From: an uncultured bacterium
Lineage (GTDB): Bacteria > Fidelibacterota > UBA2242
Direction of reading: 5' to 3'
NCBI GenBank assembly: GCA_964605705.1
Contig: CAZSDW010000010.1
Span: 28,879 to 92,878, forward strand
Length of the DNA stretch: 64,000 nt
Numbering within the stretch: position 1 is the first letter of the stretch; each line of letters starts with the position of its first letter. Positions 3,928 through 53,666 of the stretch are shown piece by piece. The notes under the pieces were generated by a model, which was not told the DNA's origin, ran no database searches, and worked only from the letters and a program-made list of their open reading frames with translations. Both the position numbers and the translations under genes were made by a program.

Positions 3928-5256
3928 TTATTTCTTACTGGAATACCGATCGTGCCAGATTTTTTCAAGCCGTTCCCGGATAAATTTTTCAGTCCCAAAA
4001 TTCGTCGGTTGATAAAAATTCACTGGCGTCATATTATCAGGAAAATACATCTGATCAACAAAAGCATCGGGGAAATCATGGGGATATCGATAATCCTTCC
4101 CGTAATCCATTGCCTTCATCAAATTCGTCGGCGCATTCCTGAGATGAAAGGGTACGACCGGCAATTCACCATCTCTGACTTCAGCCTGAGCCTTCCGAAG
4201 CGACAAATAGGACGCATTGCTCTTGGGAGAAGCAGCCAGATAGGTTGTCACCTGGGCAAGCACAATGGCAGCTTCGGGCATTCCGATCGAATGCACCGCC
4301 TGGAATCCGGAAGTCGCTACCGACAGCGCCAGCGGACTGGCATTACCGATATCCTCACTGGCAAGAACAATCAGCCGCCGGGCAATAAAGAGCGGATCTT
4401 CCCCATTCTCAACCATCAGAGCCAACCAGTAAACCGCCGCATCGGGATCGCTGCCCCGGACACTTTTAATAAATGCCGAAATGACATCATAATGATAATC
4501 ACCCTTTTTATCATACAATAAATTCCGCTGTTGTAACGCCTCTTTGATCAGTTCGAGCGTCAGATGCACCTTTCCCGATCGATCGGATTTAATCAGCTGC
4601 AAACTGATATCGATGGCATTCAGTAATTTACGGGCATCTCCGCTGACAGTCCGAATCAGAAAAACACGGGCATCTTCATCAAGGATAATCTGTTCCTTCC
4701 GGAGGAGAATATCATTTTTAAAGGTATATTCCAGAATCGCCTCGAGTTCGGAATCACTTAAAGAATTCAGCTTCAATACCCGACACCTCGAGAGCAGTGG
4801 TGCGATGACTTCAAAGGACGGATTTTCCGTTGTCGCACCCATTAGAGTCAGCGAACCATTCTCAACTGCATGCAGCAAGGCGTCCTGCTGGGCTTTATTA
4901 AACCGGTGAATTTCGTCAATAAACAGGATCGTTTTAATTCCTTCCCGCCGGTTCAAGTCTGCCTGGTTAATCACATTTCGCACATCCTTCACACCTGCCG
5001 ATACCGCACTAATCTGGAAAAAACGAGCCTCGACCTGTTTCGCAATGATCTTCGCCAGCGTCGTTTTCCCGGAACCCGGCGGACCCCATAAAATCAACGA
5101 AAATATCTGTTTGGCTTCCAGCGCTTTCTGAAGAATTTTACCCTCAGCCGTCAGATGTTCCTGACCGACAAAGTCCTGAATTGTCACCGGTCGCATACGC
5201 TCTGCTAACGGTGGTAACAGAGACGATTTTTTCGCTGTATTCCCAAATAATTCCAT
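3928..5256 (-). CDS. rarA: replication-associated recombination protein A (AAA+ ATPase, MgsA)
   Basis: GPPGSGKTT, DEIHRFNKAQQD, ATTENPSF, SEDIGNA, VPFHLRNA motifs. Confidence 0.95.
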   Translation of the reverse strand: MELFGNTAKKSSLLPPLAERMRPVTIQDFVGQEHLTAEGKILQKALEAKQIFSLILWGPPGSGKTTLAKIIAKQVEARFFQISAVSAGVKDVRNVINQADLNRREGIKTILFIDEIHRFNKAQQDALLHAVENGSLTLMGATTENPSFEVIAPLLSRCRVLKLNSLSDSELEAILEYTFKNDILLRKEQIILDEDARVFLIRTVSGDARKLLNAIDISLQLIKSDRSGKVHLTLELIKEALQQRNLLYDKKGDYHYDVISAFIKSVRGSDPDAAVYWLALMVENGEDPLFIARRLIVLASEDIGNASPLALSVATSGFQAVHSIGMPEAAIVLAQVTTYLAASPKSNASYLSLRKAQAEVRDGELPVVPFHLRNAPTNLMKAMDYGKDYRYPHDFPDAFVDQMYFPDNMTPVNFYQPTNFGTEKFIRERLEKIWHDRYSSKK

Positions 5257-5260
5257 AATA

Positions 5261-6652
5261 TCAATTCAGATCAAAACTTTCCAGATATTCGGGAATAGCC
5301 GTTTCCCAGTTAAAGGTATTCCGAATCCGTTCGCCCAATGCTCTGGACTGGGATATCTCGCCATGGACAATAAAAATCTTCCGGGGCGCTTCATTGAAAC
5401 TGGACAGCCAGGCTAAAATCTCATTGTAATCCGCATGGGCGGAAAAACCGCTGATTTGTTCAATATGAGCTCTGACCGGAATTTGCTGTCCATGAATTTT
5501 TACCGTGTCAGCACCCTCCAAAATCGTCCGTCCCCGGGTTCCCTCCGCCTGATAGCCGATAAACAGAACCGTATTATTGGGATTTTCCAGACGATTGAAC
5601 AGGTGATGCAGAATACGACCACCGGTTACCATTCCGCTAGCGGAGATGATAATTGCCCTGCCGGCAATATTGTTGATTCCTTTGGATTGATCCGGTGTCT
5701 GGGTAAAACGCAGATCCACAGTTTTCAGGATATCGATCCCTTTCAGTTCAGCAACTTTCGATTCAAGGTCATGATCCTGGGCATTTTTCATAAATATGTT
5801 TGTGGCATTGATCGCCATCGGACTGTCCACAAAAACCGGCATGACCGGAATCCGCTTTTCTTCTTCCAACTCCCGGATTGAAAAAAGCAATTCCTGGGTT
5901 CTGCCTACGGCAAATGAGGGAACGACCAGGACACCACCACGCTTGTAGCTCTCATTGATAATCCGTGCCAGATCGGTTTTCTTGTCGGTCTGTCCGTGCA
6001 GGCGATCGCCATAGGTGGATTCAAGTACAAGATAATCCGTACCAAATACCGTGTGGGGATCACGCAGAATTGGTTGTCCGGGGCGTCCCAGATCACCGGA
6101 AAACAGAATCCGGCGCTCGCCATCTTCCGTAGTAATACGAATATCCACAAACGCCGATCCGAGAATATGACCGGCGTCCCGGTAGCACAGTGTGACATTG
6201 GGAGAGAGTTGCTCCACTTTGCCATAGGGCAGCGCCTGAAACAATTCCAACGAATTTTGGGCATCTGTGATATTGTACAGGGGCATTGCCGGTGCATGCT
6301 TGGTAAACTGCTTTTTATTCGCATATTTCGCATCTTCTTCCTGTAAATGGGCAGAATCCGGAAGCATTATTGCGCTGAGGTCCATGGTCGCCGGTGTAGC
6401 ATACACCGTCCCCTTAAAGCCCATCTGAACCAGTTTCGGAAGATAACCCGTATGATCAATGTGGGCATGGGTCAGTATCACAGTATCAATGGATGTCGGA
6501 TCCACCGGGAAATCCGCCCAGTTGCGTAAACGCAGCTGTTTTAAGCCCTGAAACATTCCGCAATCAATGAGTAACTTTTTACCATCGGTTTCCAGCAAGT
6601 ATTTGGAACCTGTCACCGTGCCTGTCGCACCCAGAAAAGTAATTTTCGCCAT
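5261..6652 (-). CDS. MBL-fold metallo-hydrolase with beta-CASP/RNA-specificity domain (YSH1-like nuclease)
   Basis: GATGTVTGS, THAHIDH, AGHILGS, SGDLG, ESTYG, FAVGR, FSAHAD, VHGE motifs; ATG 6652 with GGAG RBS. Confidence 0.9.
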   Translation of the reverse strand: MAKITFLGATGTVTGSKYLLETDGKKLLIDCGMFQGLKQLRLRNWADFPVDPTSIDTVILTHAHIDHTGYLPKLVQMGFKGTVYATPATMDLSAIMLPDSAHLQEEDAKYANKKQFTKHAPAMPLYNITDAQNSLELFQALPYGKVEQLSPNVTLCYRDAGHILGSAFVDIRITTEDGERRILFSGDLGRPGQPILRDPHTVFGTDYLVLESTYGDRLHGQTDKKTDLARIINESYKRGGVLVVPSFAVGRTQELLFSIRELEEEKRIPVMPVFVDSPMAINATNIFMKNAQDHDLESKVAELKGIDILKTVDLRFTQTPDQSKGINNIAGRAIIISASGMVTGGRILHHLFNRLENPNNTVLFIGYQAEGTRGRTILEGADTVKIHGQQIPVRAHIEQISGFSAHADYNEILAWLSSFNEAPRKIFIVHGEISQSRALGERIRNTFNWETAIPEYLESFDLN

Positions 6653-39683: not shown

Positions 39684-42600
39684 ATGAGTAAATCTATGAG
39701 CAAATCATCTGCAAAATTACCGAATGGAATTAGCAATGAACAACTGCGACTGATTGTCGAAAACGCCAATGAGGCGATTTTTGTCCTTCAGAACAACAGC
39801 CTGGTTTATTCTAATTCAAAAGCCGTTGAAATTATCGGCTATCCGGTAGAAAAGATCAGGAATACACCCTTTACCGAATTCATCCATCCCGATGACAGAT
39901 CAATGGTTATGGATAATTATAAAAAACGTCTTTCCGGAAAAAATATCCAAAATATTTACAGCTTTCGTTTAATCAACAGCGCAGAGAAAGTCGTCTGGAC
40001 ACAGGTAAATTCGGTGCTGATTCAATGGAACGGAAAAGCAGCCGTCCTGGTTTTTGCAACGGATATCACCGCCTTGAAAGCCACAGAAGAATCGGTGAAA
40101 ATCAGTGAAGAGCGCTATTACGATCTTTTGGGCACTATTCCCGATGGTGTCTTTGTAATCAATATCAAAGGGATCGTCACCCAATGTAACCGGCGATTTG
40201 AAGAACTCGTTGGCTATGACCGCAGTGAAATTATCGGGAAACATATCACAGACCTGCCCACGGTGAAAAAACAAGACCTGCCCCAATATCTCAAACTCAT
40301 CGGCTCAATCTTCCGGGGACACAAAGAAAAAACTACCGAATTCAAATGGATTCATAAAAACGGCACCGAACGACTGGGGGAAGCCCGGTATAAGATTCGC
40401 AAAGAGCCGGGCAAAGTTCCGGAATTATTCATTATTTTCCATGATATTACCTTGCAGAAACTGGCTGACAAAGCCCTCAAGGAGAGTGAGGAAAAATACA
40501 AAAAGATCGTCGAAATCGCCCACGATGCCATCGTCATTCATACGGATGGTAAAATCGTTTATGCGAATCCGGCAACTGTCAGATTAAGTGGCGCGAATAG
40601 TATCAACGACCTGATTGGAAAACCGGTCATTGATTTCGTGCACCCGGATTACAGAGCGGTGACAATTCAAAGAATTCAGAAGCTGGAAAAGGGCGAAAAT
40701 ATTGCACCTGTTTTTAAAGAGGTTTTTCTTCATTTTGATGGCAGCCCTCTACCGGTCGAAGTGTCGGGATCTCGGACTACCTTTAATGGTAAACCTTCCA
40801 TTCAACTATTCATCCGGGATATCCGGGATCATCTAAAGCAACAGGAAGCCCTGGTCGAAAGCGAACGTAAATGGCGGGAACTCTTCGAAAATATGCTCGA
40901 CGGGTGGTTTTCCAACGATATCAATGGAAAATACCTGGAATACAACCAGGCATTTCTGGATATGCTGGGATATCCGGCTGAAGAACTGCGGCAAAAAACT
41001 CACCGGGAAATTACCCCGGAAAAATGGCACGGCTTTGAAGACGAGATCGTCAATAAAATCCTGAAACAAAAAGGTTTTACCGGGATTTATGAAAAAGAGT
41101 ATCTCCATAAAGACGGCAGGATCATTCCGGTTGAAATATCGATTCACCAGATCAAAGATGACAATGGAAAACCGATCGGTACCTGGGGAATTGCCCATAA
41201 TATTATCGAGAAAAAAGCATCTCAGGACGCCCTGGCAATCCGGGAATTTCTGAATCAGATTACCCTGAAAAACATATCCGATGCCATTTTTATCACAAAT
41301 GACCGGGGCAAATTTACCTTTATCTGCACCGACCCGGAGTCACTCTTCGGATATTCCAAGAGCGAGTTGCTGAAAATGGGCAATGTCTCAAAATTGTTCG
41401 AGATTGGTAAAATTGACACAACCCTGCTAAAAACCCGGGGCGAAATCCAGAATATTGATTATGCTATTACCGACAAATCGGGAACCAAGAAGGTCATTCT
41501 GGTCAATATCAAAAATGTCGCCATCGGTGACGGAACGCGACTCTTTACCTGTCGTGAAATTACCGATCGAAAAAAAGCCGAAATAGCGCTCCGGCGCAGT
41601 GAAAATCGATACCGGGTTTTATTCGATACCGCTCCGGCGGGAATTATTACCGTTGATCCTGAAGGCAAAATCCGGGAAGTCAACCAGGAGATGCTGAAGT
41701 TTCTCGGCTCTCCCTCGGCAGAACAGACCAAAGCAATCAATATGTTCACATTTCCACCGCTGGTCGAGGCTGGTATTTCCAGGTCCCTGCAGGAATGCCT
41801 GGAAACCGGCAACAGTTTCGTCTGTGAACATCCCTATCAATCAAAATGGGGCAAAAGTGTCGTCCTGCATTATCACCTGGCTGCGATCAAAGATGACAAC
41901 GGAGCAAATATCGGCGTTCAGGCAATTGCCCTGGATTATACCAAATATCGCCAGGCGGAAGATGAGTTGCGAAAAAGCGAGGAGTTCCTGTCCACAATTT
42001 TTAATTACAGTAATATTGGTGTTTACCTGATAAAAGTGACCGCGGATGGGAATTATATTTATGAAGGGATCAATCCGATTCAAGAAAAACTGCTGGCTAT
42101 TTCGAATGATTTTGTCAAGGGAAAACGCCCGGAAGACCTCGTATCTCTACTCGGCAAAGAAGCCGTTGATTCGTTGCTCGCTATCTTTGATGAATGTGTG
42201 CAGAAAAAAGAGTCACTGGAGTCAGAATCCTTTGTCCCGGAAGGTCCCGCGAAAGGCTGGTGGTTTAACCAGTTGAGACCCATCATGGATGATCAAAACC
42301 GGGTGATTCGCCTGATTGGCAATGGAATGAAAACAACCGAATTGAAAGAAGCCCAAAGCGCCCTGCGGGCAAGCGAAGCCCGTTTTTCAACATTCACAAA
42401 CCATATTCCGGCGGCGGTATTTATCAAAGACCAAGAGTGCAAAACTCTCTATCTGAACCGGTACATGCAGCGCCTGTTCAACGCAGATGACAGCTGGCTT
42501 GGAAAAACCTTCGCAGACATGATTCCCGGTGAAATTGGCAGACAAATACTCGATGATGACCGGCAAGCCCTGCGGACTGGTTTTATCGAGAAAGAAAAAA

Positions 42601-45185
42601 CGATCATCGATCCGACCGGCAAGAAACGCATTTTATATTCCCAGAAATTCAGAATCGAGCAACCGGACGGTCCGCCTATCCTGGGTGGGATCGCCTGGGA
42701 TATTACCCGCCTGAAGGATACGGAATCCGCCCTGCAGGAGAGTCAGTCACGGTTTTTAGCCTTCATGGACCATATTCCGGGAGGCGTCTTTATAAAAGAC
42801 CACGCGAGTAAATTCGTCTATCTGAACAAATACATGCACGACAACTTCAGTACCGATGATCGCTGGATCGGAAAATCGACGGATAAACTGTTCCCCGAAG
42901 AAACCAGCAAACGGATGATTCGTGAAGATCAAGCCGCTTTGGAAAAAGGCATGCTCGTGATTGAGGAGCCGGTCGAAGACAGATTCGGAAATGACCATAT
43001 ATATCAAACCTACAAATTCAGAATCGATCAGGATGGCGGGAAACCATTGCTGGGCGGGATTACGATGGATATTACCGAGCGCAAAAAAGCAGCGGAAGCC
43101 ATCCGTGAAAACGAACGTTTTCTCCAAAATACCTTCGATGCAATCCAGGATGGTATCTCGGTGCTGGATCGGGATTTGACGATCATTAAAACCAATCAGT
43201 GGATGAGTGAACAGTATGCTCACAACAAACCGTTAGTGGGCAAAAAATGCTACCAGGCTTACCAGCAGCGTGATTCAATCTGCCCCTGGTGTCCCAGCGT
43301 GAAAGCCCTTCAAACCGGAGCAACACATACCCAAGAGGTTCCCTATCCCAACGAGGAAAATCCCACAGGCTGGATCGATCTGTCCGCATTTCCGCTGAAG
43401 AATGCACAGGGCGAAGTGACCGGCGTCATCGAATACGTCAAAGATATCAGCAAACGCAAAAAAGCCGAAGAAGCCCTGCGCAAAAGTGAAGCCCAGTATC
43501 GGGAACTTATCGACGGGATGATCGAAACCGTCTGGATCATCGACTTTGACGGAAATTTGCTGGATGTCAACCACAGTGCCACTGAAGTACTGGGCTATAC
43601 CCAAAAAGAGCTGTTGGACATTGGGTTGTACGGTATCGATTCCTCACTCAAGAAAGAAGCTATCCGAGCACTTGCCGGAGCAATGCCCAAGGATGAAACC
43701 CAGATGTTTGAAACATCCCATCGGAAAAAAGACGGCACGATCTTCCCCGTAGAAGTCTATTCCAGCCTGGTAACCTATCATGGAAAACCGGCTATTCTGA
43801 GCATCGCCCGCGACATCACCGATCGTAAAAGGGCTGAAAAACAGCTGCAAGAAAGTGAAGAGAAACATCGTCTTATCAATCAAAATATTCCGGTACTTGT
43901 TTATGCCGCCCTTCCCGATGAAAAATCAACCAATATCTTTTTATCGGGGCAAGCTCAGGAACTGACGGGTTACAACAGTGAAGAGTTGCTTAATGACAAC
44001 TCCATCTGGGAAAAAATGATTCACCCCGATGATGTTGAAAAGGTTTTGAAAGCGATAAGCGCTCACCGAAAGGCTAAATCGATTCTCAATATCGAATATC
44101 GGATCATAACAAAATCCGGTAAGCAAAAGTGGATTCATGACAAAGCCAAACCGCTGCTGGATGAAAACGAAACCATTATCCTAATTCAAGGATTCATGGA
44201 AGACATCACCGAGCGCAAGCAGGCGGAAGAGGCGCTGAAAAATCAGGAACATTTTATTTCTGCCGTCGCGGATACCAATCCGGCGCTGATCTATGTCTAT
44301 GATATGGAATCCAACAGCAATGTTTACAGCAATACGGGGATTGAAAAATTGCTGGGATATTCCGCTCCTGAAATACAGGCAATGGGCAGTGATATGTTTC
44401 CCCGGCTGATCCACCCTGATGATCTTCCTGGTGTCATTAAATTCCAAAAGGAAATCCTGGCAGCCAAAGATGAAGACGTTCTGGAAATCGAATACCGGAT
44501 GAGGCACCGCAATGGAAAATGGGTCACTCTGCACAGCTATGAAAGGGTATTTCTGAGAAATCCCAATGGTTCTGTGAAACAAAAGGTTGGCGTTGCTCTC
44601 GATGTCACCGAGCGCAAACAAACCGAAGAGGAACTTCACAGTTCCCGATATATGCTGCAGACCGTGTTGAATACATTGCCCACCGGTGTTTTCTGGAAAG
44701 ACACCAAGCTGAATTACCTGGGTGCCAACCGCGCCTGGCTTGAAACAGTCGGAGTTGAATCAGTGAAAGATATAATCGGAAAAAGCGATTATGACCTGCC
44801 ATGGGAAAAGTCTGAGGCGGATTCATTCCGGGCTGACGATACCAAAATTATAGAATCTGGCTTCCCACGCTATAACATCATCGAGCCCTATTCGCGTGCC
44901 GATGGAACCCACGCTTGGGCAAAGACCAATAAAGCCCTCCTGCGAAGCAATGACGGTCAAATCATCGGAGTGCTCGGTACCTATGAGGACATCACAACCC
45001 AAAAGCAGGCGGAAGACCAACTTCATCAGAAAATAACCGAACTGGAGCGCTTCAACAAGGTCATGGTGGGACGTGAAAACCGCATGATCGAACTGAAGCA
45101 GGAAATCAACGAACTCTGTGATAAACTGGGAATTCCTCATAAATATCAGGCATCGAATGATATAAATAACATGAATTCGACATAA
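39684..45185 (+). CDS. giant multi-PAS protein (14 PAS/PAC repeats, 1833 aa), no catalytic output, GRENRMIELK tail
   Basis: 14 repeated PAS starts, most closed by DIT-type PAC ends; ends ELERFNKVMVGRENRMIELKQEINELCDKLG. Confidence 0.88.
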   Translation: MSKSMSKSSAKLPNGISNEQLRLIVENANEAIFVLQNNSLVYSNSKAVEIIGYPVEKIRNTPFTEFIHPDDRSMVMDNYKKRLSGKNIQNIYSFRLINSAEKVVWTQVNSVLIQWNGKAAVLVFATDITALKATEESVKISEERYYDLLGTIPDGVFVINIKGIVTQCNRRFEELVGYDRSEIIGKHITDLPTVKKQDLPQYLKLIGSIFRGHKEKTTEFKWIHKNGTERLGEARYKIRKEPGKVPELFIIFHDITLQKLADKALKESEEKYKKIVEIAHDAIVIHTDGKIVYANPATVRLSGANSINDLIGKPVIDFVHPDYRAVTIQRIQKLEKGENIAPVFKEVFLHFDGSPLPVEVSGSRTTFNGKPSIQLFIRDIRDHLKQQEALVESERKWRELFENMLDGWFSNDINGKYLEYNQAFLDMLGYPAEELRQKTHREITPEKWHGFEDEIVNKILKQKGFTGIYEKEYLHKDGRIIPVEISIHQIKDDNGKPIGTWGIAHNIIEKKASQDALAIREFLNQITLKNISDAIFITNDRGKFTFICTDPESLFGYSKSELLKMGNVSKLFEIGKIDTTLLKTRGEIQNIDYAITDKSGTKKVILVNIKNVAIGDGTRLFTCREITDRKKAEIALRRSENRYRVLFDTAPAGIITVDPEGKIREVNQEMLKFLGSPSAEQTKAINMFTFPPLVEAGISRSLQECLETGNSFVCEHPYQSKWGKSVVLHYHLAAIKDDNGANIGVQAIALDYTKYRQAEDELRKSEEFLSTIFNYSNIGVYLIKVTADGNYIYEGINPIQEKLLAISNDFVKGKRPEDLVSLLGKEAVDSLLAIFDECVQKKESLESESFVPEGPAKGWWFNQLRPIMDDQNRVIRLIGNGMKTTELKEAQSALRASEARFSTFTNHIPAAVFIKDQECKTLYLNRYMQRLFNADDSWLGKTFADMIPGEIGRQILDDDRQALRTGFIEKEKTIIDPTGKKRILYSQKFRIEQPDGPPILGGIAWDITRLKDTESALQESQSRFLAFMDHIPGGVFIKDHASKFVYLNKYMHDNFSTDDRWIGKSTDKLFPEETSKRMIREDQAALEKGMLVIEEPVEDRFGNDHIYQTYKFRIDQDGGKPLLGGITMDITERKKAAEAIRENERFLQNTFDAIQDGISVLDRDLTIIKTNQWMSEQYAHNKPLVGKKCYQAYQQRDSICPWCPSVKALQTGATHTQEVPYPNEENPTGWIDLSAFPLKNAQGEVTGVIEYVKDISKRKKAEEALRKSEAQYRELIDGMIETVWIIDFDGNLLDVNHSATEVLGYTQKELLDIGLYGIDSSLKKEAIRALAGAMPKDETQMFETSHRKKDGTIFPVEVYSSLVTYHGKPAILSIARDITDRKRAEKQLQESEEKHRLINQNIPVLVYAALPDEKSTNIFLSGQAQELTGYNSEELLNDNSIWEKMIHPDDVEKVLKAISAHRKAKSILNIEYRIITKSGKQKWIHDKAKPLLDENETIILIQGFMEDITERKQAEEALKNQEHFISAVADTNPALIYVYDMESNSNVYSNTGIEKLLGYSAPEIQAMGSDMFPRLIHPDDLPGVIKFQKEILAAKDEDVLEIEYRMRHRNGKWVTLHSYERVFLRNPNGSVKQKVGVALDVTERKQTEEELHSSRYMLQTVLNTLPTGVFWKDTKLNYLGANRAWLETVGVESVKDIIGKSDYDLPWEKSEADSFRADDTKIIESGFPRYNIIEPYSRADGTHAWAKTNKALLRSNDGQIIGVLGTYEDITTQKQAEDQLHQKITELERFNKVMVGRENRMIELKQEINELCDKLGIPHKYQASNDINNMNST

Positions 45186-45253
45186 GAGATGAATGTTTAT
45201 ATTTTGAAAAATAAACCGTTAAAACGGTTATTATTATGAGGTTTAAATTAACT

Positions 45254-45352
45254 CCCGAATTTCTCAGCAGGGACTCCTGTAGGAGAATTCGGGGGATGCA
45301 CCTAATTTTTACTAAGAATTCAACTGTTTCAACAGTTTCCATAGGTGATTTC
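45254..45352 (-). repeat. 99-bp structured repeat, copy 1 (inverted relative to 52800-52898)
   Basis: reverse complement matches 52800-52898 at 95/99 positions; internal CCCGAATT/AATTCGGG hairpin and AACTGTT-N2-AACAGTT palindrome. Confidence 0.9.
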
Positions 45353-45417
45353 ATTATCTTTCTCTTTCATCGAACTCACGTTAAATAAACAATCCAATTG
45401 AAAATAGAGGATAAGCA

Positions 45418-48348
45418 ATGACGGCAAATTCCAAACCAGCCAGATCTAAGATCAATGCGACCAAGCCCTTTTTTGTCGTCGGAATCGGCGCATCTGCCGG
45501 TGGCCTGGAAGCACTGGGTAACTTTTTTACCAAAGTAAGCCCGAAACCGGGCACCGCGTTCGTCATTATTCAGCATCTCAGCCCGAGCTATAAAAGCAGC
45601 ATGGCGTCTCTCCTGACCAGATATACCGATCTGCCTGTCGCTGAAATCATCGACAGTATGCCGGTGAAATCCAATCATATTTACCTGAATCCTTCGGATA
45701 AAAACGTCGCCCTGTTTAGCCGGGTATTTCAGCTGAGCGACCCGGCACCCAAAGCCGGGATCAACCTGCCGATCGATCATTTTTTCCGCTCCCTGGCGGA
45801 TGACTGTCAGGAACAGGCAGTCGGCATTATTTTGTCCGGTACGGCGTCCGATGGTTCAGCCGGCATCAAAGCCATTAAGGAGCACGGCGGCATGGTGATG
45901 GTTCAACAGCCTGACAACGCCCAATACCCCGGCATGCCCCAGAGCGCCATCAATACCGGTCTGGTGGATGTCATTCTGCCAGTCGAGGAATTGCCTGCCA
46001 GCCTGCTAAAATACGTCCGGCATCCGTTATTAAAAAAACGTAGCACCGACGCTGATCAACAAAGTATTTTTCAGGACAATATCCGGAAAATCTTTCACTT
46101 CATCCGCAGCAAAACGGGACACGATTTCAGCCAGTATAAACAAAACACGATCCGGCGGCGGGTCGAACGGCGGATGGCGATTCACCAGATTGCCGAATTG
46201 CCGGATTATATCCGGTATCTCGAAAAAACTCCTTTGGAAGCCGAAACCCTGTTCCGGGAACTGCTGATTGGCGTGACCGGGTTTTTCCGTGATCCGGAAG
46301 CCTTCGATATCCTGAAAGAGACTATCCTGCCGAAATTTCTGGAAACGAAATTACCGGACGCAACTCTGCGTATCTGGATCGTCGGCTGCTCCACCGGCGA
46401 GGAAGCCTACTCCCTGGGAATCCTCCTCTCTGAAGTAATGAATGCTCTGAAAAAACAGTTCAACTTTCAGATTTTCGCCAGTGATATCGATCCACGGGCG
46501 ATCGAAACAGCACGCCTGGGTGTTTACCCGGAAAGCATTGTTTCCGATGTCAGCGAAGAACGCTTAAGACATTATTTCAGCAAAGTCGATCATCATTTCC
46601 GGATTAAAAAATCCATTCGCGACATGGTGGTTTTTGCCGATCACAACCTGATCAAAGACCCGCCCTTTTCCAGGCTGGATCTGCTGGTCTGCCGGAATCT
46701 GCTCATCTATTTGGACGGCGCTCTCCAAAAGAAGATATTCCCCATATTTCACTTTACCCTGAATCCCGACGGAATTCTCTTTCTGGGATCGTCGGAAAGT
46801 ATTGGAGTCCACACCGATCTATTCAAGCCCCTGAATCCCAAATGGAAAATCTTTCAAAAGAAGCTCAACCTGGATGGAAAAGCCAAAGAATTATACGACT
46901 ATCAACCGAAAAACAACAAGTCAATAAAAATGAATGGTCCCAACAAAAAATCACCGAGTATTGCCGATGTCATCCATAAAACCGAACGCCTGATTTTTGA
47001 TACGTTTGCCCCGGCAGCCGTCATTATCAATGAAAAATCGGAGATTCTGCATTTCATCGGTTCTACCGACAAATTCCTGGCGCCGCCCGTCGGGCAAGCC
47101 TCTTTTAATCTGCTGAATATGGCGCGGGAAAATTTAAAGTATCAGTTGTCGGTACTAATCACCAAAGCGCTGCAACAGAAAACCATCACATCCGCCAGTG
47201 GTATTCGCTTCGCATCGGATAATGTCAACCGGGTTGCTGATATCACAGTGCGGCCCCTTTCCGAGGACAATCTGCCCGAAGGATTGATGCTGGTGATTTT
47301 CGAAGATATGACTGCCACCGGTAAGCCAAAAGCTGCGGTAAGTGTTTCATCCGGCACAAACCCCCGTAACAGGAATGTTGCGCAACTCGAAAAGGAACTG
47401 CAATCCACCCGGGAATACCTCCAGAGCACCATTGAGGAAATGGAAACTTCCAATGAGGAACTGCGCTCCGCCAATGAAGAATTACAATCGGTTAATGAAG
47501 AGCTGCAAAGCGCCAATGAAGAACTGGAAACTTCCAAAGAGGAACTCCATTCCACCAATGAGGAGCTCAGCACCGTCAACGCGGAACTGCAGATGAAAGT
47601 GGCAGAATTGAGCCAGTCCAACGACGACATGAACAACCTGCTGGCGGCTAGCCAGATCGGGACCGTCTTCCTGGACAATAATCTCTGCATCAAACGCTTT
47701 ACGCCCGCCATGCAGAATACGATCAACCTGATCACTTCCGATATCGGCAGACCCATTGATCATATCACGACCCAGTTTCAGGATTTGAAAATCAGTGACT
47801 ATGTCCGGGAAGTCCTCAATACGCTGCACCAGAAAGAGTGTGAAATCCAGACCCGCGAAGGGCATTGGTACAACATGCGGATTCTGCCCTACCGCACCAC
47901 AGAAAATGTCATCGACGGCGTGGTGATCACCTTTTTCGATATTCAATCCGTCAGACAGACCCGAAAATTACGCCGCCTGGCAACCATCCTGCAGGATTCC
48001 GATGATGCGATTCTGGCATTTGACCTTACCGGAAATATCATTGCCTGGAACCGGGGCGCCGAAAAGATGTACGGCTATAGTGAGCCAGAAGCCCTCCGGA
48101 TGAAAATATATGCAATCACCCGAAAAAAAGACCACGCTGAATTCGACCGCTTGATTCAAACCATAAAAGCCGGGAAACCGGTTGAGCCCTATAATGCAAT
48201 ACGGATCAGCAAAACCGGACAGAAACTGGATGTCCTGGTCACGGCTACGACACTCCGCGATGATCAGGGAGTCCCGGTAGAAGTGGCTATCACCGAGCGA
48301 AATCTTTACTGGCTCCCGACCGAAAAAGCAAAGAAAGCATCCTCATGA
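45418..48348 (+). CDS. CheB methylesterase-CheR methyltransferase fusion with coiled coil and PAS domains
   Basis: CheB GASAGG/QHL/GTASDG triad; CheR GVTGFFRD, GCSTGEEAYS, CRNLLIY; NEEL heptads; two C-terminal PAS; no kinase. Confidence 0.92.
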   Translation: MTANSKPARSKINATKPFFVVGIGASAGGLEALGNFFTKVSPKPGTAFVIIQHLSPSYKSSMASLLTRYTDLPVAEIIDSMPVKSNHIYLNPSDKNVALFSRVFQLSDPAPKAGINLPIDHFFRSLADDCQEQAVGIILSGTASDGSAGIKAIKEHGGMVMVQQPDNAQYPGMPQSAINTGLVDVILPVEELPASLLKYVRHPLLKKRSTDADQQSIFQDNIRKIFHFIRSKTGHDFSQYKQNTIRRRVERRMAIHQIAELPDYIRYLEKTPLEAETLFRELLIGVTGFFRDPEAFDILKETILPKFLETKLPDATLRIWIVGCSTGEEAYSLGILLSEVMNALKKQFNFQIFASDIDPRAIETARLGVYPESIVSDVSEERLRHYFSKVDHHFRIKKSIRDMVVFADHNLIKDPPFSRLDLLVCRNLLIYLDGALQKKIFPIFHFTLNPDGILFLGSSESIGVHTDLFKPLNPKWKIFQKKLNLDGKAKELYDYQPKNNKSIKMNGPNKKSPSIADVIHKTERLIFDTFAPAAVIINEKSEILHFIGSTDKFLAPPVGQASFNLLNMARENLKYQLSVLITKALQQKTITSASGIRFASDNVNRVADITVRPLSEDNLPEGLMLVIFEDMTATGKPKAAVSVSSGTNPRNRNVAQLEKELQSTREYLQSTIEEMETSNEELRSANEELQSVNEELQSANEELETSKEELHSTNEELSTVNAELQMKVAELSQSNDDMNNLLAASQIGTVFLDNNLCIKRFTPAMQNTINLITSDIGRPIDHITTQFQDLKISDYVREVLNTLHQKECEIQTREGHWYNMRILPYRTTENVIDGVVITFFDIQSVRQTRKLRRLATILQDSDDAILAFDLTGNIIAWNRGAEKMYGYSEPEALRMKIYAITRKKDHAEFDRLIQTIKAGKPVEPYNAIRISKTGQKLDVLVTATTLRDDQGVPVEVAITERNLYWLPTEKAKKASS

Positions 48349-51300
48349 AAAACAAATCCAATCCTTCATCAGATAAAACCAATCTGCGTCAACAGGCGGA
48401 AAAAAAATTAGGCGGAAAAACCGATCAGGTACAGGATTTCGCGAAGATGAGCCCTGACGAGATTGCCCGGACGGTTCATGAACTCCGGGTTCACCAGATC
48501 GAGATGGAGATGCAGAATGAACAGCTGCGCCAGACCCAGATGGAGCTGGAACAGACCCGGGATAAATACAGCGATCTCTATGATTTCGCACCCGTGGGGT
48601 ATTGTACCCTTTCCGAGAAAGGCACAATCACGGAATGCAACCTGACCCTCTGTTCGCTCCTGAACATCGACCGCAGTTCCCTGGTTGGAAAACATTTTTC
48701 AGCTTTTATCCACCCGGAAGATCACGATAATTATTACCGATTTTGGAATCACCTGCAAAAGGAAAATTCCGCACAACAATCCCAGTTTCGTATGCAGCAA
48801 AAAAACGGAAACCGTTTTTTTACTGACTTACATGCCATGGTCATTCCGGAATCGGAAACAGAAAAACGGCATATGCGTCTGGCGGTGACCAATATTTCTT
48901 CCCAAAGAGCCGCCGATGACGCACTGCACCAGGAACGGGATCTGCTGAAAGATATCACCGATACCAGTCCCGTGGGGATAACCGTTGTCGATACCGTCGG
49001 TCAGATCACCTTTGCCAATGCTGAAGCCGAGAAGATCCTCGGTCTGGAAAAGGAATCCATCACCAGCCGGAGGTATAACGATCCGCTCTGGAAAATCACC
49101 GATTACAGCGGTAATCCCTTTCCCAACGAACAACTGCCTTTTGCAGTCGTTAAAAAAACCCTCAAGCCCACTTACAATATTCAACACGCCATCCAGTGGC
49201 TCGATGGACAGCGCACCCTGCTCAGTATCAACGCCATGCCCCGGTTTGATGAATCGGGACATTTTCAGGGCATGGTTGCCGCGATTCAGGATGTCACCGA
49301 GAAGATCAGGACTGAACGGGCGTTAAATCGGGAAATGGAACTGGCTCAGCATTACCTGAATATCGCCGGAACCCTTTTTGTCGCGATCGATAAAAACCAG
49401 ATTGTCACCATGATAAATCCCAAAGCCTGTGAAATCCTGGGCTATCCCGAAAATGAAATTATCGGTAAAAACTGGTTTGACCATTTTGTGCCCAAAGGCA
49501 ACCGGAAAGACGTCAAAAAAGTCTTTGATAAAATCATTGCCGGGCAATTGACGCCGGTCGAATTCTATGAAAACCCGGTGCTGACTAAATCCGGCAAAGA
49601 ACGCCTGATTACGTGGCATAATTCACTGCTTTATGATGATAATGGTTCCATCGGCGGAATCCTGAGCTCCGGCGAAGATATCACCCGGCACTACGAATCC
49701 CAGGAAAAACTGCTGGAACAGTTTCAGTTCCAGCAAACCCTGATCAACACGATTCCAAGCCCGGTTTTCTATAAAGATAACCAGGGGAAATATACCGGCT
49801 GCAATAAAGCTTTCAGCAATTTTATCGGATTACCCCAGGAAAAGATTCTGGGCAAAACAGCCTATGACATTGTCCCCGGGGAATTCGCCGATTTTTATCA
49901 CAAAAAAGATTTGGAACTCATTGAGCATCCCGGAATCCAGCATTACGAATGGAAAGTCAAATCCGCCGACGGCAACATTAGAAATGCCATTTTCGATAAA
50001 GCCACATTATACGGAGCCAACAAACAGCCCGCTGGTATGATCGGAATCATTTCCGATATCACCGAATTGAAGCAAGCGGAACAGGAAATCCGGGAAAGCC
50101 ATAGTGCCACCCTGAATATTCTTGAGGATTTTAACCGGGAATTTAATATAAGAAAAAGAACGGAAGCTGCCTTAAAAAAAAGCGACGAACGTTTCAATCT
50201 TGCCATGCAGGCAACGTCGGATGGTATCTGGGACTGGAACCTGATCAGCAACGCCATATACTATTCCCCCGGTTGGAAAAGCATGCTGGGATACGCCGAC
50301 GATGAAATCAAAAATGAATTTTCCGAATGGGAACGCCTGACTGACCCGGAAGATTTGGAAAAAACCTGGCAAATGCTGGATGAGCACATCAGCGGTAAGC
50401 GTGACCGTTTTGAGATTGAGTTTAAAATGCGCCATAAAGACGGTCACTGGGTGGACATTTTATCCCGCGCCAACGCGGTGTTCGATCAAAATGGCAAAGC
50501 CATCCGTCTGATCGGTACCCATGTGGATATCTCCGAGCGTAAAAATCTGGAACAGCAGATTCGGGACGCTTATAATTTCAACCAGTTGATTATTGACACC
50601 TCGCCGGTGGGTGTCTGGATCTATGATGAAACCGGTCAAACCATTATGATCAATCCGGCTGGCGTTGCGCTGAGCGGCGGCGATTATGATCTGCTGATCC
50701 GCATGAACTGGCGTAAACTGGAGTCATGGAAAAAGACAGGGCTGTTCGATGCCGCCGAAGAAGTACTGAAAACCGGCAAAATGGTCAAAAAGGAAATCCA
50801 TGCCGTCAATACAGTCAACACAGAAGTCTGGTATGAAGCGTTGCTGCTCTCGGTCCAATTCAAGGGGAAGAAGCATCTGCTGATGATGACCTATGATGTC
50901 AAAGAGCAGAGAATTGCCGGAAGAGCCTTGCGGGAGAGCGAGGAACGCTTCCGGCAGCTGTTTGACAACATGCAAAACGGCGTAGCGATTTATACGCCTG
51001 TTGATGATGGCAAAGAATTTATCTTTAAAGACATTAATAAAGCCGGTGAAAAACTCAGCCAGGTCAAAAAGGAAGCTATCGTCGGCAAAAAGCTATTGGA
51101 TATATTCCCCGGTGCCGCTGCGTACGGCTTGATCGATGCTTTTCATCAAACTGTCAAGACTGGTAAACCCGCGCATGTTGACCTCAAAATGTACCAGGAT
51201 CAACGAATGTCTCAATGGGTGGAAAACACGGTTTATGCCTTGCCATCCGGCGAGGTCGTTGCTATCTATGAAGATACCAGCGAACGCCATAGATATCTGG

Positions 51301-52724
51301 ATGCTTTACGGGAAAATGAGGCGAAATTCCGGGAGATTTTCGAATTTGCCGGCGAGGGAATCATCTATGTAAGCCCGCAAGGGCAGATTCTGGAAGTGAA
51401 CCAGTCGCTCCTGAAAATCGTAAACCTGGATTACAAGGAAGTGGTCGGACTGAACGTCACGAAGCTGGCAAAAAAACTGCTGAGATTACAGGACAGCAAA
51501 TGGATCCTGCCACTGGTCACTAAAGCGCTGAGCGGCAAGAAAATCAAAAACTTTGAAATCGAATTCAGGAACCGGATTCTGGAAATCGGCGCTTCCTACA
51601 ATAAAAAATCCGGTTGCACCACCGGGATACTCCGGGATATTACCGAGCGGAGGCAGATGGAAAATCAAATCCGGAAAAGTGAAAAACAGTACCACCATCT
51701 GTTCGACAGCATGCTGGACGCTTTTGCCCTGCATGAAATGATTTACGACAATAACGGTAAACCGGTGGATTACCGGTTCATCACCGTCAACTCCGCCTTT
51801 GAGAAATCGACCGGACTCAAAAAAGAACAACTGATTGGAAAAACTGTCCTGGAAATCATGCCCGGCACCGAGTCATATTGGATTAGAATCTACGGAGAGG
51901 TCGTTCGTACCGGAAATCCGAAACAGTTTGAAAATTATTCACGGGAATTAAACCGGTATTATGAAGGCGTTGCCTACTCGCCGGAGTCGGGTAAATTCGC
52001 CACCATTTTCCAGGATGTAACGGAGCGGATATTGGCGACAAAAAAACTCCGTGTCAGCGAAGAACGCCTCCGGGCACTGGCAACCCATTTACAGAATATT
52101 CGCGAGGATGAACGCAAAGCCATTGCCCGGGAAATCCATGATGAAATCGCCCAGATTATGACTGCCCTGAAAATCGATCTGTCAATCCTGGGTTCCAATT
52201 TATCCGATAGCTACCCGGAAATATCCGCTCAATACGGACCCGATATCCAGCTGATGAAAGACCTGATTGATACGACTATCAAAAAGATTCGGGACATGAT
52301 TCAGCGCCTGCGCCCCGAGGCTCTGGATTCCATGGGATTGATTGAAGCAATGCGCTGGTCTATGAATGAAATGACCCGGGACAGCCAACTCACCGGACAC
52401 TTCAGAAGTTATCTCAAGCAACTGGATCTGGCTGGCGATCAGGCACTGGCATTTTATCGTATTTTTCAGGAAGCTGTTACCAATACAATCCGGCATGCTG
52501 CCGCCGCAAATATCCATGCCTCGCTCAGTAAAAGGAACCGGCAGTTGATTTTAAAGATCAATGATGACGGAATTGGGCTTGATCTTGAGAAAATAAACAA
52601 ACGTGACAGCTATGGCTTGACCGGAATGCGCGAACGGGCGCTATCTCTCAACGGAACGCTCAGGATTGAGAGCCAACCAGGGAAAGGCACTACAATAATT
52701 CTAACGGTTCCGCTCAACGAATAG
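48345..52724 (+). CDS. multi-PAS (9) sensor histidine kinase, HisKA_3/NarX type
   Basis: N-terminal HELRVHQIEMEMQNEQL coil; AREIHDEIAQ H-box; NTIRHA, DDGIG, GLTGMRER; ATGA-coupled to cheBR; internal ATLNILED. Confidence 0.92.
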   Translation: MKNKSNPSSDKTNLRQQAEKKLGGKTDQVQDFAKMSPDEIARTVHELRVHQIEMEMQNEQLRQTQMELEQTRDKYSDLYDFAPVGYCTLSEKGTITECNLTLCSLLNIDRSSLVGKHFSAFIHPEDHDNYYRFWNHLQKENSAQQSQFRMQQKNGNRFFTDLHAMVIPESETEKRHMRLAVTNISSQRAADDALHQERDLLKDITDTSPVGITVVDTVGQITFANAEAEKILGLEKESITSRRYNDPLWKITDYSGNPFPNEQLPFAVVKKTLKPTYNIQHAIQWLDGQRTLLSINAMPRFDESGHFQGMVAAIQDVTEKIRTERALNREMELAQHYLNIAGTLFVAIDKNQIVTMINPKACEILGYPENEIIGKNWFDHFVPKGNRKDVKKVFDKIIAGQLTPVEFYENPVLTKSGKERLITWHNSLLYDDNGSIGGILSSGEDITRHYESQEKLLEQFQFQQTLINTIPSPVFYKDNQGKYTGCNKAFSNFIGLPQEKILGKTAYDIVPGEFADFYHKKDLELIEHPGIQHYEWKVKSADGNIRNAIFDKATLYGANKQPAGMIGIISDITELKQAEQEIRESHSATLNILEDFNREFNIRKRTEAALKKSDERFNLAMQATSDGIWDWNLISNAIYYSPGWKSMLGYADDEIKNEFSEWERLTDPEDLEKTWQMLDEHISGKRDRFEIEFKMRHKDGHWVDILSRANAVFDQNGKAIRLIGTHVDISERKNLEQQIRDAYNFNQLIIDTSPVGVWIYDETGQTIMINPAGVALSGGDYDLLIRMNWRKLESWKKTGLFDAAEEVLKTGKMVKKEIHAVNTVNTEVWYEALLLSVQFKGKKHLLMMTYDVKEQRIAGRALRESEERFRQLFDNMQNGVAIYTPVDDGKEFIFKDINKAGEKLSQVKKEAIVGKKLLDIFPGAAAYGLIDAFHQTVKTGKPAHVDLKMYQDQRMSQWVENTVYALPSGEVVAIYEDTSERHRYLDALRENEAKFREIFEFAGEGIIYVSPQGQILEVNQSLLKIVNLDYKEVVGLNVTKLAKKLLRLQDSKWILPLVTKALSGKKIKNFEIEFRNRILEIGASYNKKSGCTTGILRDITERRQMENQIRKSEKQYHHLFDSMLDAFALHEMIYDNNGKPVDYRFITVNSAFEKSTGLKKEQLIGKTVLEIMPGTESYWIRIYGEVVRTGNPKQFENYSRELNRYYEGVAYSPESGKFATIFQDVTERILATKKLRVSEERLRALATHLQNIREDERKAIAREIHDEIAQIMTALKIDLSILGSNLSDSYPEISAQYGPDIQLMKDLIDTTIKKIRDMIQRLRPEALDSMGLIEAMRWSMNEMTRDSQLTGHFRSYLKQLDLAGDQALAFYRIFQEAVTNTIRHAAAANIHASLSKRNRQLILKINDDGIGLDLEKINKRDSYGLTGMRERALSLNGTLRIESQPGKGTTIILTVPLNE

Positions 52725-52799
52725 CGCTCGGAAATAAGAATTGGGAATTTACCCGGTGTTTATTAAAATAACGTGAGTTCGATCTAAAACAATGCTAAG

Positions 52800-52898
52800 G
52801 AAATTACCAATGGAAACTGTTAAAACAGTTGAATTCTTAGTAAAAATTAGGTGCATCCCCCGAATTCTCCTACAGGAGTCCCTGCTGGGAAATTCGGG
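52800..52898 (+). repeat. 99-bp structured repeat, copy 2
   Basis: 95/99 identity to the reverse complement of 45254-45352; CCCCCGAATT/AATTCGGGGG 10-bp hairpin (52857-52900). Confidence 0.9.
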
Positions 52899-53030
52899 GG
52901 CTATCCCAAAATATCCAAACTCAGGAAACCGTTTCAACGGTTTTTTATCTATCCGGAGAGACAGTGATTGGTTAAATCGAACTCACATTAAAATACCTTA
53001 TAATCAGCAAACCAGGCAAGGAATTGCAGT

Positions 53031-53666
53031 ATGATTACCATATTAATTGCCGATGATCACAGCCTGATCCGGGAAGGATTCAAAAAAATTCTCAGCCGCG
53101 AGACGGATATCAGCGTTATCGGAGAAGCTCAAAATGCCAGTGAGGTAATGGACTTCTTGCAGAACAAGCATTGTGATATTCTTGTGCTGGATATAACCAT
53201 GCCCGGGAAAAGCGGACTGGATATATTGGCGGATATCAAGATTCAGTATCCCGATATCAACGTTCTGGTCCTCAGTATGCATGCCGAAGAGTACTATGCC
53301 CTGCGAGCCTTAAAAGCCGGCGCAAAAGGGTATCTGACCAAGGAAAGCGCACCGGACGAGCTGCTCAAAGCCATCCGAAAAATCGATTCCGGACGGATGT
53401 ACCTCAGCCAGGATGTGGCGGAGCAGCTGGCTTACAACCTGGGTGATAAAACCGATAAACTGCCCCATGAAAATCTTTCCAATCGTGAATTCCAGGTCCT
53501 GAATCTCATCGCGAATGGACGATCGATTTTAGATATCAGCAATGAACTCTCGATCAGCGCCAGCACCGTCAGCACCTACCGTCAGCGGATCATGGAAAAA
53601 CTAAACCTTCACAGTACTGCCGATATCATTCTGTATGCCGTCAATAATCATCTGCTGGATGATTAA
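53031..53666 (+). CDS. NarL/UvrY-family response regulator (REC + LuxR HTH)
   Basis: ADDH, LDITMPG, YLTK, LSNREFQVL...STYRQRIMEKL. Confidence 0.93.
   Translation: MITILIADDHSLIREGFKKILSRETDISVIGEAQNASEVMDFLQNKHCDILVLDITMPGKSGLDILADIKIQYPDINVLVLSMHAEEYYALRALKAGAKGYLTKESAPDELLKAIRKIDSGRMYLSQDVAEQLAYNLGDKTDKLPHENLSNREFQVLNLIANGRSILDISNELSISASTVSTYRQRIMEKLNLHSTADIILYAVNNHLLDD

Follow-up and report, generated by a model that had tools for sequence, protein, structure and literature searches.

Why should two genes in the middle of a signalling operon be bracketed by a long pair of inverted repeats? The question is raised by a 64,000-nt stretch of DNA (the window) from an uncultured salt-marsh bacterium of the Fidelibacterota (contig CAZSDW010000010.1, here C10:28879-92878), in which a CheB-CheR-PAS fusion gene (cheBR) and a HisKA_3 histidine kinase gene lie between two copies of a non-coding repeat. 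Re-alignment reproduced exactly the 99-bp arms first noticed: set against 52800-52898 in reverse complement, 45254-45352 shows four mismatches (at 45264, 45330, 45343 and 45347), and the longest identical run is 65 nt. A repeat search followed the similarity of the pair over 144 nt at 88% (45249-45392 and 52760-52903). Since the same search found no other inverted pair longer than 34 nt in the 10-kb region around the arms, the match is far beyond chance. Pfam searches agreed that the arms enclose only the CheB-CheR fusion and the HisKA_3 kinase, with a PAS-array gene upstream and a NarL-type regulator gene downstream. The GC hairpin described for each arm was found at 45254-45293 and 52859-52898, and there is indeed no transposase or recombinase among the flanking open reading frames (ORFs) that were scanned. 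The original prediction had offered an invertible segment, a composite element that delivered the cassette, or a duplicated regulatory module. Judged from the sequences, the arms are very probably two independent insertions of a low-copy, non-autonomous MITE (miniature inverted-repeat transposable element) that uses the ends of an insertion sequence (IS) of the IS982 family. An IS982-derived MITE is a kind of element already known, encountered here in an uncultured salt-marsh bacterium, and the bracket is ordinary transposon litter, neither a gene switch nor a delivery vehicle.

Alignment of the two spacers with other copies in the genome showed that the repeat units extend beyond the 99 bp recognised earlier, and that terminal inverted repeats and a target-site duplication belong to each unit separately. 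Copy a (45169-45381, plus strand) is a 213-bp non-coding unit between the PAS-array gene and cheBR; its termini read ACATGAATTCGACATAAG and CTTTCATCGAACTCACGT on the plus strand, and it is flanked by TAAATA on both sides (45163-45168 and 45382-45387, 6/6 identical). Copy b (52771-52988, minus strand) is a 218-bp non-coding unit between the kinase and NarL-type genes, inverted relative to copy a, with plus-strand termini ACGTGAGTTCGATCTAAA and GTTAAATCGAACTCACAT; its inner (52764-52770) and outer (52989-52995) flanks are both TAAAATA on the plus strand (7/7). The terminal inverted repeat common to the two copies is ACGTGAGTTCGAYRTAAG. A search for target-site duplications, proposed with the original prediction, has thus been successful at each copy, and the outermost flanks of the pair, ATAAATA and TAAAATA, agree at only 5/7 positions. 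Because each copy's own flanks match, the present arrangement is that of two separate insertions, with no net inversion since. The bracketing of cheBR and the kinase is therefore a by-product of insertions in neighbouring spacers, and is no sign of a mobile or invertible unit. Duplication registers of 2 bp (TA), 3 bp and 5 bp were rejected in favour of 6-7 bp, given the rule that IS982 ends start with 5′-AC and the 7/7 match at the related IS described below.

Between the termini lies a triplet of hairpins, in the order AACCGTT-NN-AACGGTT, about 25 nt, the GC hairpin, about 27 nt, and AACTGTT-NN-AACAGTT. In copy a these are hairpin 1 at 45214-45229 (7-2-7, AACCGTT-AA-AACGGTT; RNA fold -6.1 kcal/mol), the GC hairpin at 45254-45293 (outer stem CCCGAATT / AATTCGGG with a 24-nt insert; -18.4 kcal/mol, z = -4.1) and hairpin 3 at 45322-45337 (7-2-7, AACTGTT-TC-AACAGTT). 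Reading copy b along the plus strand gives hairpin 3 at 52815-52830 (AACTGTT-AA-AACAGTT), the GC hairpin at 52859-52898 (RNA fold -20 kcal/mol) and hairpin 1 at 52927-52942, which is followed by TTTTTTATC on the plus strand and is terminator-like (-9.2 kcal/mol, z = -3.3). A 7-2-7 palindrome had been reported for each arm; it is present, but each copy carries two (45214 and 45322; 52815 and 52927) and not one. The long form of the GC hairpin is CCCCCGAATT...AATTCGGGGG with an insert of 20-24 nt, and a short form, CCCGAATTAATTCGGG, occurs in the copies on contigs C52, C2 and C69. Across the genome, the 7-2-7 palindromes are confined to MITE copies and one solo site. Only short ORFs without a family match overlap the MITE copies. 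The whole window gave no Rfam match at the gathering score, and when the repeat was searched at E values up to 10 the sole match was a chance snoRNA of 13 bits; with no credible match in these searches, a reading as small RNA or riboswitch was dropped.

The termini connect these units to a transposase family. A 13-nt terminus was used as a query in 30 genomes of the same bacterial family, in which the genus of the window is represented by its own genome only. Pairs of the same termini about 1 kb apart were found in two of them (G016:C161 and G012:C222). The element at G016:C161:4835-5880 is 1,044 bp long, has the same 18-bp termini at both ends and is flanked by a perfect 7-bp duplication, TAAATTA (7/7). 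Its transposase matches the NF033520 profile in two ORF pieces (153 and 57 bits), or at 270.6 bits when read through one in-frame TAG, and matches DDE_Tnp_1_3 in Pfam; G012:C222 is a degraded copy of the same-termini IS. Both ends of the G016:C161 element correspond to the ACGTGAGTTCGAYRTAAG termini, which copies a and b share with three further copies in the genome (C62, C52 and C2). Members of the IS982 family are about 1 kb long and have inverted repeats with 5′-AC ends and direct repeats of variable length, that of IS1187 from Bacteroides fragilis (FCB group) being 7 bp (PMC7335449). Intact IS982 copies in G005, G023 and G012:C105 were considered as the parent and rejected, as they do not have these termini.

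Movement of the MITE can be pictured from these features. A DDE transposase of the IS982 type, provided in trans, would recognise the termini of 18 bp, which start with 5′-AC, and make a staggered cut, the repair of which would leave the 6-7 bp duplication. The targets were AT-rich sites of the form TA(N2-3)TA, situated in short intercistronic spacers of a tightly packed operon that already existed, and the two copies entered in opposite orientations. The cargo, the hairpin triplet of 7-2-7 palindrome, GC hairpin and second 7-2-7 palindrome, is not derived from the transposase gene.

The genome (3.56 Mb in 120 contigs, 43% GC, 96% complete) contains 7-8 MITE copies on 6-7 contigs: two on C10, one each on C62, C71, C52, C2 and C69, and a decayed one on C57. 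Two of those outside the window retain perfect duplications, TATTTTA (7/7) around the C62 copy (5169-5385) and TAAACTA (7/7) around the C52 copy (2030-2221); a further copy lies at C2:58907-59098, that on C71 is 5′-truncated, that on C69 is diverged, and the flanking duplications of the older copies are degraded. Their neighbours are unrelated to the signalling operon and include genes for a secreted protein, a TrkA-like protein, IscU/NifS, pyruvate:ferredoxin oxidoreductase and transketolase. With the same module beside unrelated genes elsewhere in the genome, the proposal of a duplicated regulatory module is not needed. The full-length identity of copy a is 90% with the C62 copy but only 78% with copy b, the arms of which belong to another subtype. 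As copy a is closer to C62 (90% versus 78%), copy b is no local duplicate of copy a. Scattered copies, with neither inversion nor polymorphism of the cassette in view, had been named beforehand as the outcome that would make the bracket coincidental, and that is essentially what was found.

Six related genomes, representing five genera, contain inverted pairs of the same termini at distances of 182-392 bp, and one such element, at G008:C26, has a 7/7 duplication. Five loci in G008, G011 and G029 (L129, L130, L136, L137 and L140) carry the same IS982 termini 187-392 bp apart around unrelated interiors, that of L130 being the inverse of L137. One pair of IS982 ends has thus captured several different cargos.

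The sites that received the two copies can be reconstructed from the operon itself. The PAS-array gene (39684-45185, plus strand, 1,833 aa) has its last five codons and stop codon (45183-45185) within the left terminus of copy a. It is followed by the CheB-CheR-PAS fusion gene (45418-48348, plus strand, 976 aa; Pfam CheB_methylest, CheR_N, CheR and PAS), by the PAS-array histidine kinase gene (48345-52724, plus strand, 1,459 aa; HisKA_3 and HATPase_c), which overlaps cheBR by 4 nt, and by the NarL/LuxR-type response regulator gene (53031-53666, plus strand, 211 aa; REC and GerE), the product of which is the likely partner of the HisKA_3 kinase. The spacers before cheBR and after the kinase gene are 232 nt and 306 nt long, and MITE sequence makes up nearly all of both. 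The PAS-array protein now ends in ...SNDINNMNST*, the NMNST codons and TAA stop being borne by the MITE (45169-45185). When copy a and one duplication are deleted in silico, this ORF ends in ...SNDINKQSN*, 16 nt before the cheBR ATG and behind AGAGGA, so it is likely that insertion changed the last residues from KQSN to NMNST and that the stop codon is now MITE-supplied. Deletion of copy b leaves an 81-nt spacer ahead of the NarL gene. Both reconstructed empty sites read as native operon junctions, and GC content continues without a break across either MITE boundary.

The gene order is supported by relatives. In the distantly related L071 (CAWCAY010000006.1, 6773-15973), the PAS array and CheB-CheR form a single ORF of 2,049 aa, the HisKA_3 kinase gene overlaps this PAS-CheBR ORF, and the NarL-type gene overlaps the kinase gene; in L091 and L104, a kinase gene and a NarL gene are found directly 3′ of cheBR. 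The NarL gene thus belongs to the conserved unit of all three loci yet stands outside the bracket, and the bracketed pair is therefore no natural unit. The arrangement in L071 suggests that the four-gene unit is ancient and that its genes can be either fused or separate. The CheB-CheR-PAS fusion itself occurs in just 1/29 other family genomes (G010, 46% identity), and its closest relatives are found in metagenome-assembled genomes (MAGs) of Desulfobacterales at 53% identity. Horizontal transfer may have brought in the whole operon, in events unconnected with the MITEs. Within the CheB-CheR gene, the part that encodes the coiled-coil linker contains two tandem 84-nt units with 71% identity (47413-47580).

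Several observations weigh against the two-insertion reading. The same-termini IS copies in the relatives are all broken, by stop codons or truncations, and neither the NF033520 profile nor tblastn detected an IS982 transposase in the 96%-complete assembly that holds the window. Binning of metagenomes often loses IS copies. Without an IS982 transposase in their own genome the MITE copies are relics or rely on an IS that was not binned, and mobilisation must therefore be historical, or depend on an IS absent from the bins. A second point is the distribution of differences between the copies. Their cores of about 90 nt (45254-45345 and 52807-52898) show two differences, while the arms of a and b are only about 50-70% alike; informative sites join copy a with copy b by 4:1 in the core and with the C62 copy by 36:6 in the arms (Fisher p = 0.005). 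The near-identical cores could be due to gene conversion, or simply to a conserved core. Gene conversion between a and b is not claimed, as the core has just 4 versus 1 informative sites. Placement is a further consideration: simulated random placement of 7-8 copies in this assembly gave a pair within 7.6 kb 8-10% of the time, with 4-5% for an inverted pair. Two of 7-8 copies inverted 7.4 kb apart is mildly unusual, yet unremarkable for a feature picked after the fact. Lastly, the population data are blind to rare inversion, since Logan contigs end inside the 65-nt core.

Inversion deserves attention all the same. Recombination between the copies, either site-specific or RecA-dependent through the 65-nt core, could flip cheBR and the kinase gene relative to the promoter of the operon and act as an on/off switch. 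The repeats are inverted and 7.4 kb apart, an identical run of 65 nt is in principle enough for homologous recombination, and the cores of a and b are somewhat more alike than their arms predict, which is compatible with exchange. However, a single crossover would swap the inner flanks, and each copy keeps its own matching duplication. The four genes are co-directional and, with a 4-nt overlap between cheBR and the kinase gene, a flip would break a translationally coupled operon. Nor is an enzyme at hand: resolvase/invertase proteins (PF00239) are absent from the genome, its five tyrosine recombinase matches (PF00589) are all on other contigs, and the flanking ORFs specify PAS, REC and unknown proteins and no recombinase. 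The locus is present, as Logan contigs, in 19 salt-marsh runs, and in four of these the contigs enter both copies from each flank, so both insertions are present in several independent salt-marsh samples. No strand-changing joints were seen in the four runs, a weak test given where the contigs end. Two joints, 52782>52976 and 45339>52967, were considered as empty sites or inversions and rejected, as they stem from further members of the element family aligned at the termini. An identical NarL protein is encoded on five contigs from different salt-marsh samples, with copy b alongside, and one of these, L120 from a JGI assembly, runs through copy b and on into the kinase gene, in the orientation of the window; it is the only one to span the copy, and also the only match in an exact look-up of a small ORF inside copy b. 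When metagenome contigs were scanned for the flank upstream of the NarL gene, one was retrieved, which starts within copy b, and an exact look-up of the CheBR protein returned no metagenome contigs. Nothing supports rare inversion of the RecA type, and the invertible switch, left unsupported by the absence of a nearby recombinase, the intact duplications and the orientation of L120, is highly improbable. The other claim about the pair as a whole is that the two MITEs served as the ends of a 7.8-kb composite transposon that brought cheBR and the kinase gene to this place. Inverted terminal elements do look like a composite layout, and the scarcity of the CheB-CheR fusion in the family (1/29 other genomes, with the best relatives at 53% in Desulfobacterales MAGs) would fit an imported cassette. 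Against this, the outermost flanks form no duplication while the flanks belonging to a single copy agree perfectly, a native intercistronic spacer of 16 nt stood between the PAS array and cheBR before insertion, composition does not break at the boundaries, a and b are of different subtypes (78% identity), and the NarL gene, which in L071 overlaps the kinase gene, is part of the conserved unit of L071, L091 and L104 but lies beyond the bracket. Delivery of the cassette by such a unit is contradicted by the duplications and extremely improbable. The earlier description of the element as MITE- or REPIN-bounded is thus right in one respect, the arms being MITEs by their IS982-type termini and duplications, and wrong in making them the vehicle of the genes between them.

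The REPIN half of that description leads to another mobile system. Here the unit of about 200 bp would have been moved not by an IS982 enzyme but by a Y1 transposase resembling a RAYT (REP-associated tyrosine transposase; REP, repetitive extragenic palindromic). The internal hairpins of the MITE do resemble REP-like ones that flank Y1 genes. Y1 genes of the IS200/IS605 type occur in 19/30 family genomes, with 1-3 in each. Those on C57 and C90, and those in the five related genomes examined, have arrays of perfect 7-2-7 and 9-2-9 hairpins on both sides (own loci C57:14780-15700 and C90:3300-4400; L148 in G029:C213, L149 in G003:C34, L151 in G025:C494, L152 in G022:C57 and L161 in G012:C166), of the types AACCGNT-NN-ANCGGTT and CACCCGAWT-NN-AWTCGGGTG and similar. 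The Y1 gene at C57:14924-15376, for example, has AACTGCT-NN-AGCAGTT, AACCGCT-AA-AGCGGTT and CACCCGAAT-CA-ATTTGGGTG in its flanks. At C90, a repeated hairpin block (CCACCCAATAAATTGGGTGG, CCGACTGAAGTCGG) just upstream of the second Y1 gene contains a run of N (C90:3406-3504, masked or unassembled) and recurs downstream of the gene. The hairpin type, order and spacing (25-29 nt) of the arrays match the interior of the MITE, and C57:15460-15650 aligns with a MITE copy at a score of 67, compared with 30 +/- 5 for shuffled sequences. Yet the units have 5′-AC termini of the IS982 type and duplications of 6-7 bp, which Y1/HUH transposition does not make, and the same termini enclose unrelated cargo at L129, L130, L136, L137 and L140. 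Copy number is also very low, the commonest hairpin stems in the genome having <=11 copies, and the Y1 proteins score 69.9 bits with the IS200/IS605 model NF033573 (cut-off 55) and only 30.6 with the REP-associated model NF047646 (cut-off 80). That a Y1 enzyme moved the units is very unlikely. It is plausible, from the likeness of the hairpins, that the cargo of the IS982-type MITE is a REP-type cluster of a RAYT-like system, and the MITE could then be a chimera of IS982 DDE transposon ends and REP-like hairpins of the Y1-flanking kind, a suggestion made only tentatively. If true, IS982 transposition spreads RAYT-type hairpin modules into operon spacers, where the Y1 enzyme could act on them or the host could use them as intercistronic RNA elements, and the near-identical cores of a and b could reflect exchange between copies.

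Whether the insertions have since been put to use by the operon is a separate matter from how they arrived. NarL-type proteins classically bind inverted heptamers in a 7-2-7 arrangement, and the hairpin triplets might act on the operon either as intercistronic stabilisers or attenuators of its mRNA or, through the palindromes, as NarL operators. Both copies lie within one transcription unit and have strong predicted RNA folds (-53.8 kcal/mol with z = -4.0, and -67.9 kcal/mol with z = -5.3), both insertions appear to be fixed in several samples, and on the sense strand copy b ends in GGAAACCGTTTCAACGGTTTTTTATC, a hairpin with a U-run, some 90 nt ahead of where the NarL gene begins. Hairpin and U-run together resemble a weak terminator; no U-run is found in copy a, which lies in the opposite orientation. 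On the other side, the same palindromes are found in every MITE copy beside unrelated genes, and the promoter-like and terminator-like matches in the region do not exceed those in shuffled sequences. An exapted regulatory role is accordingly doubtful. In Escherichia coli, intercistronic REP elements partly uncouple the expression of parts of an operon, and by analogy a folding RNA of about 220 nt between cistrons may partly uncouple the three parts of this operon or alter their relative expression.

Reading the repeats as two MITE insertions removes a false lead, and the PAS, CheBR, HisKA_3 and NarL genes should be handled as one ancestral operon. Annotation should take into account that the MITE is the source of the stop codon and C-terminal residues of the PAS-array protein, and of nearly the whole of both spacers. 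The four 7-2-7 palindromes near the NarL gene are likewise explained, as hairpins internal to the MITE that were not put there as operators for the regulator. The pattern of flank matches provides a simple test of inversion and of composite transposition that needs only the sequence. A more modest value is the documentation, in a little-studied uncultured lineage, of an IS982-type MITE family and of hairpin arrays flanking Y1 genes.

Among known systems, the invertible DNA switches (Hin, Gin, Fim and the invertons of Bacteroides) share with this locus a segment flanked by inverted repeats, but theirs are 14-40 bp long and recombinase-specific, and come with a nearby recombinase gene and an internal promoter or alternative gene ends, none of which is present here. 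REP elements and their bacterial interspersed mosaic elements (BIMEs), and REPINs with their RAYTs, known from E. coli and Pseudomonas, are similar in having short, GC-rich, AT-flanked perfect hairpins in intergenic or intercistronic spacers, with the same hairpin types flanking low-copy Y1 genes on both sides, and may stabilise or attenuate mRNA in operons; the present units differ in their IS-type termini and target duplications, in single-digit copy numbers instead of hundreds, and in a Y1 protein that scores below the REP-associated cut-off. The Correia elements of Neisseria (Correia repeat enclosed elements, CREE) are likewise MITEs (about 100-150 bp) with terminal inverted repeats, TA-containing duplications and intergenic or intercistronic sites, and can alter transcript processing. 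They are unrelated in sequence and in parental IS family, and are abundant; promoters, IHF sites and RNase III sites have been documented in them. Members of the IS982 family such as IS1187 (PMC7335449) share the 5′-AC termini and the 7-bp duplication, and G016:C161 provides an autonomous relative of about 1 kb, whereas the elements in the window encode nothing and have only the termini of about 18 bp in common with it. An IS982-derived MITE of about 240 bp has already been described in the Cardinium endosymbiont cOegib (PMC9769881). The family reported here differs from it in having only 7-8 copies, no parental IS in the assembly, a hairpin-triplet cargo that is not of IS origin and an uncultured salt-marsh host; the two are alike in being short, non-coding, multicopy elements that have inverted repeats of, or close to, the IS982 type and carry no transposase gene.

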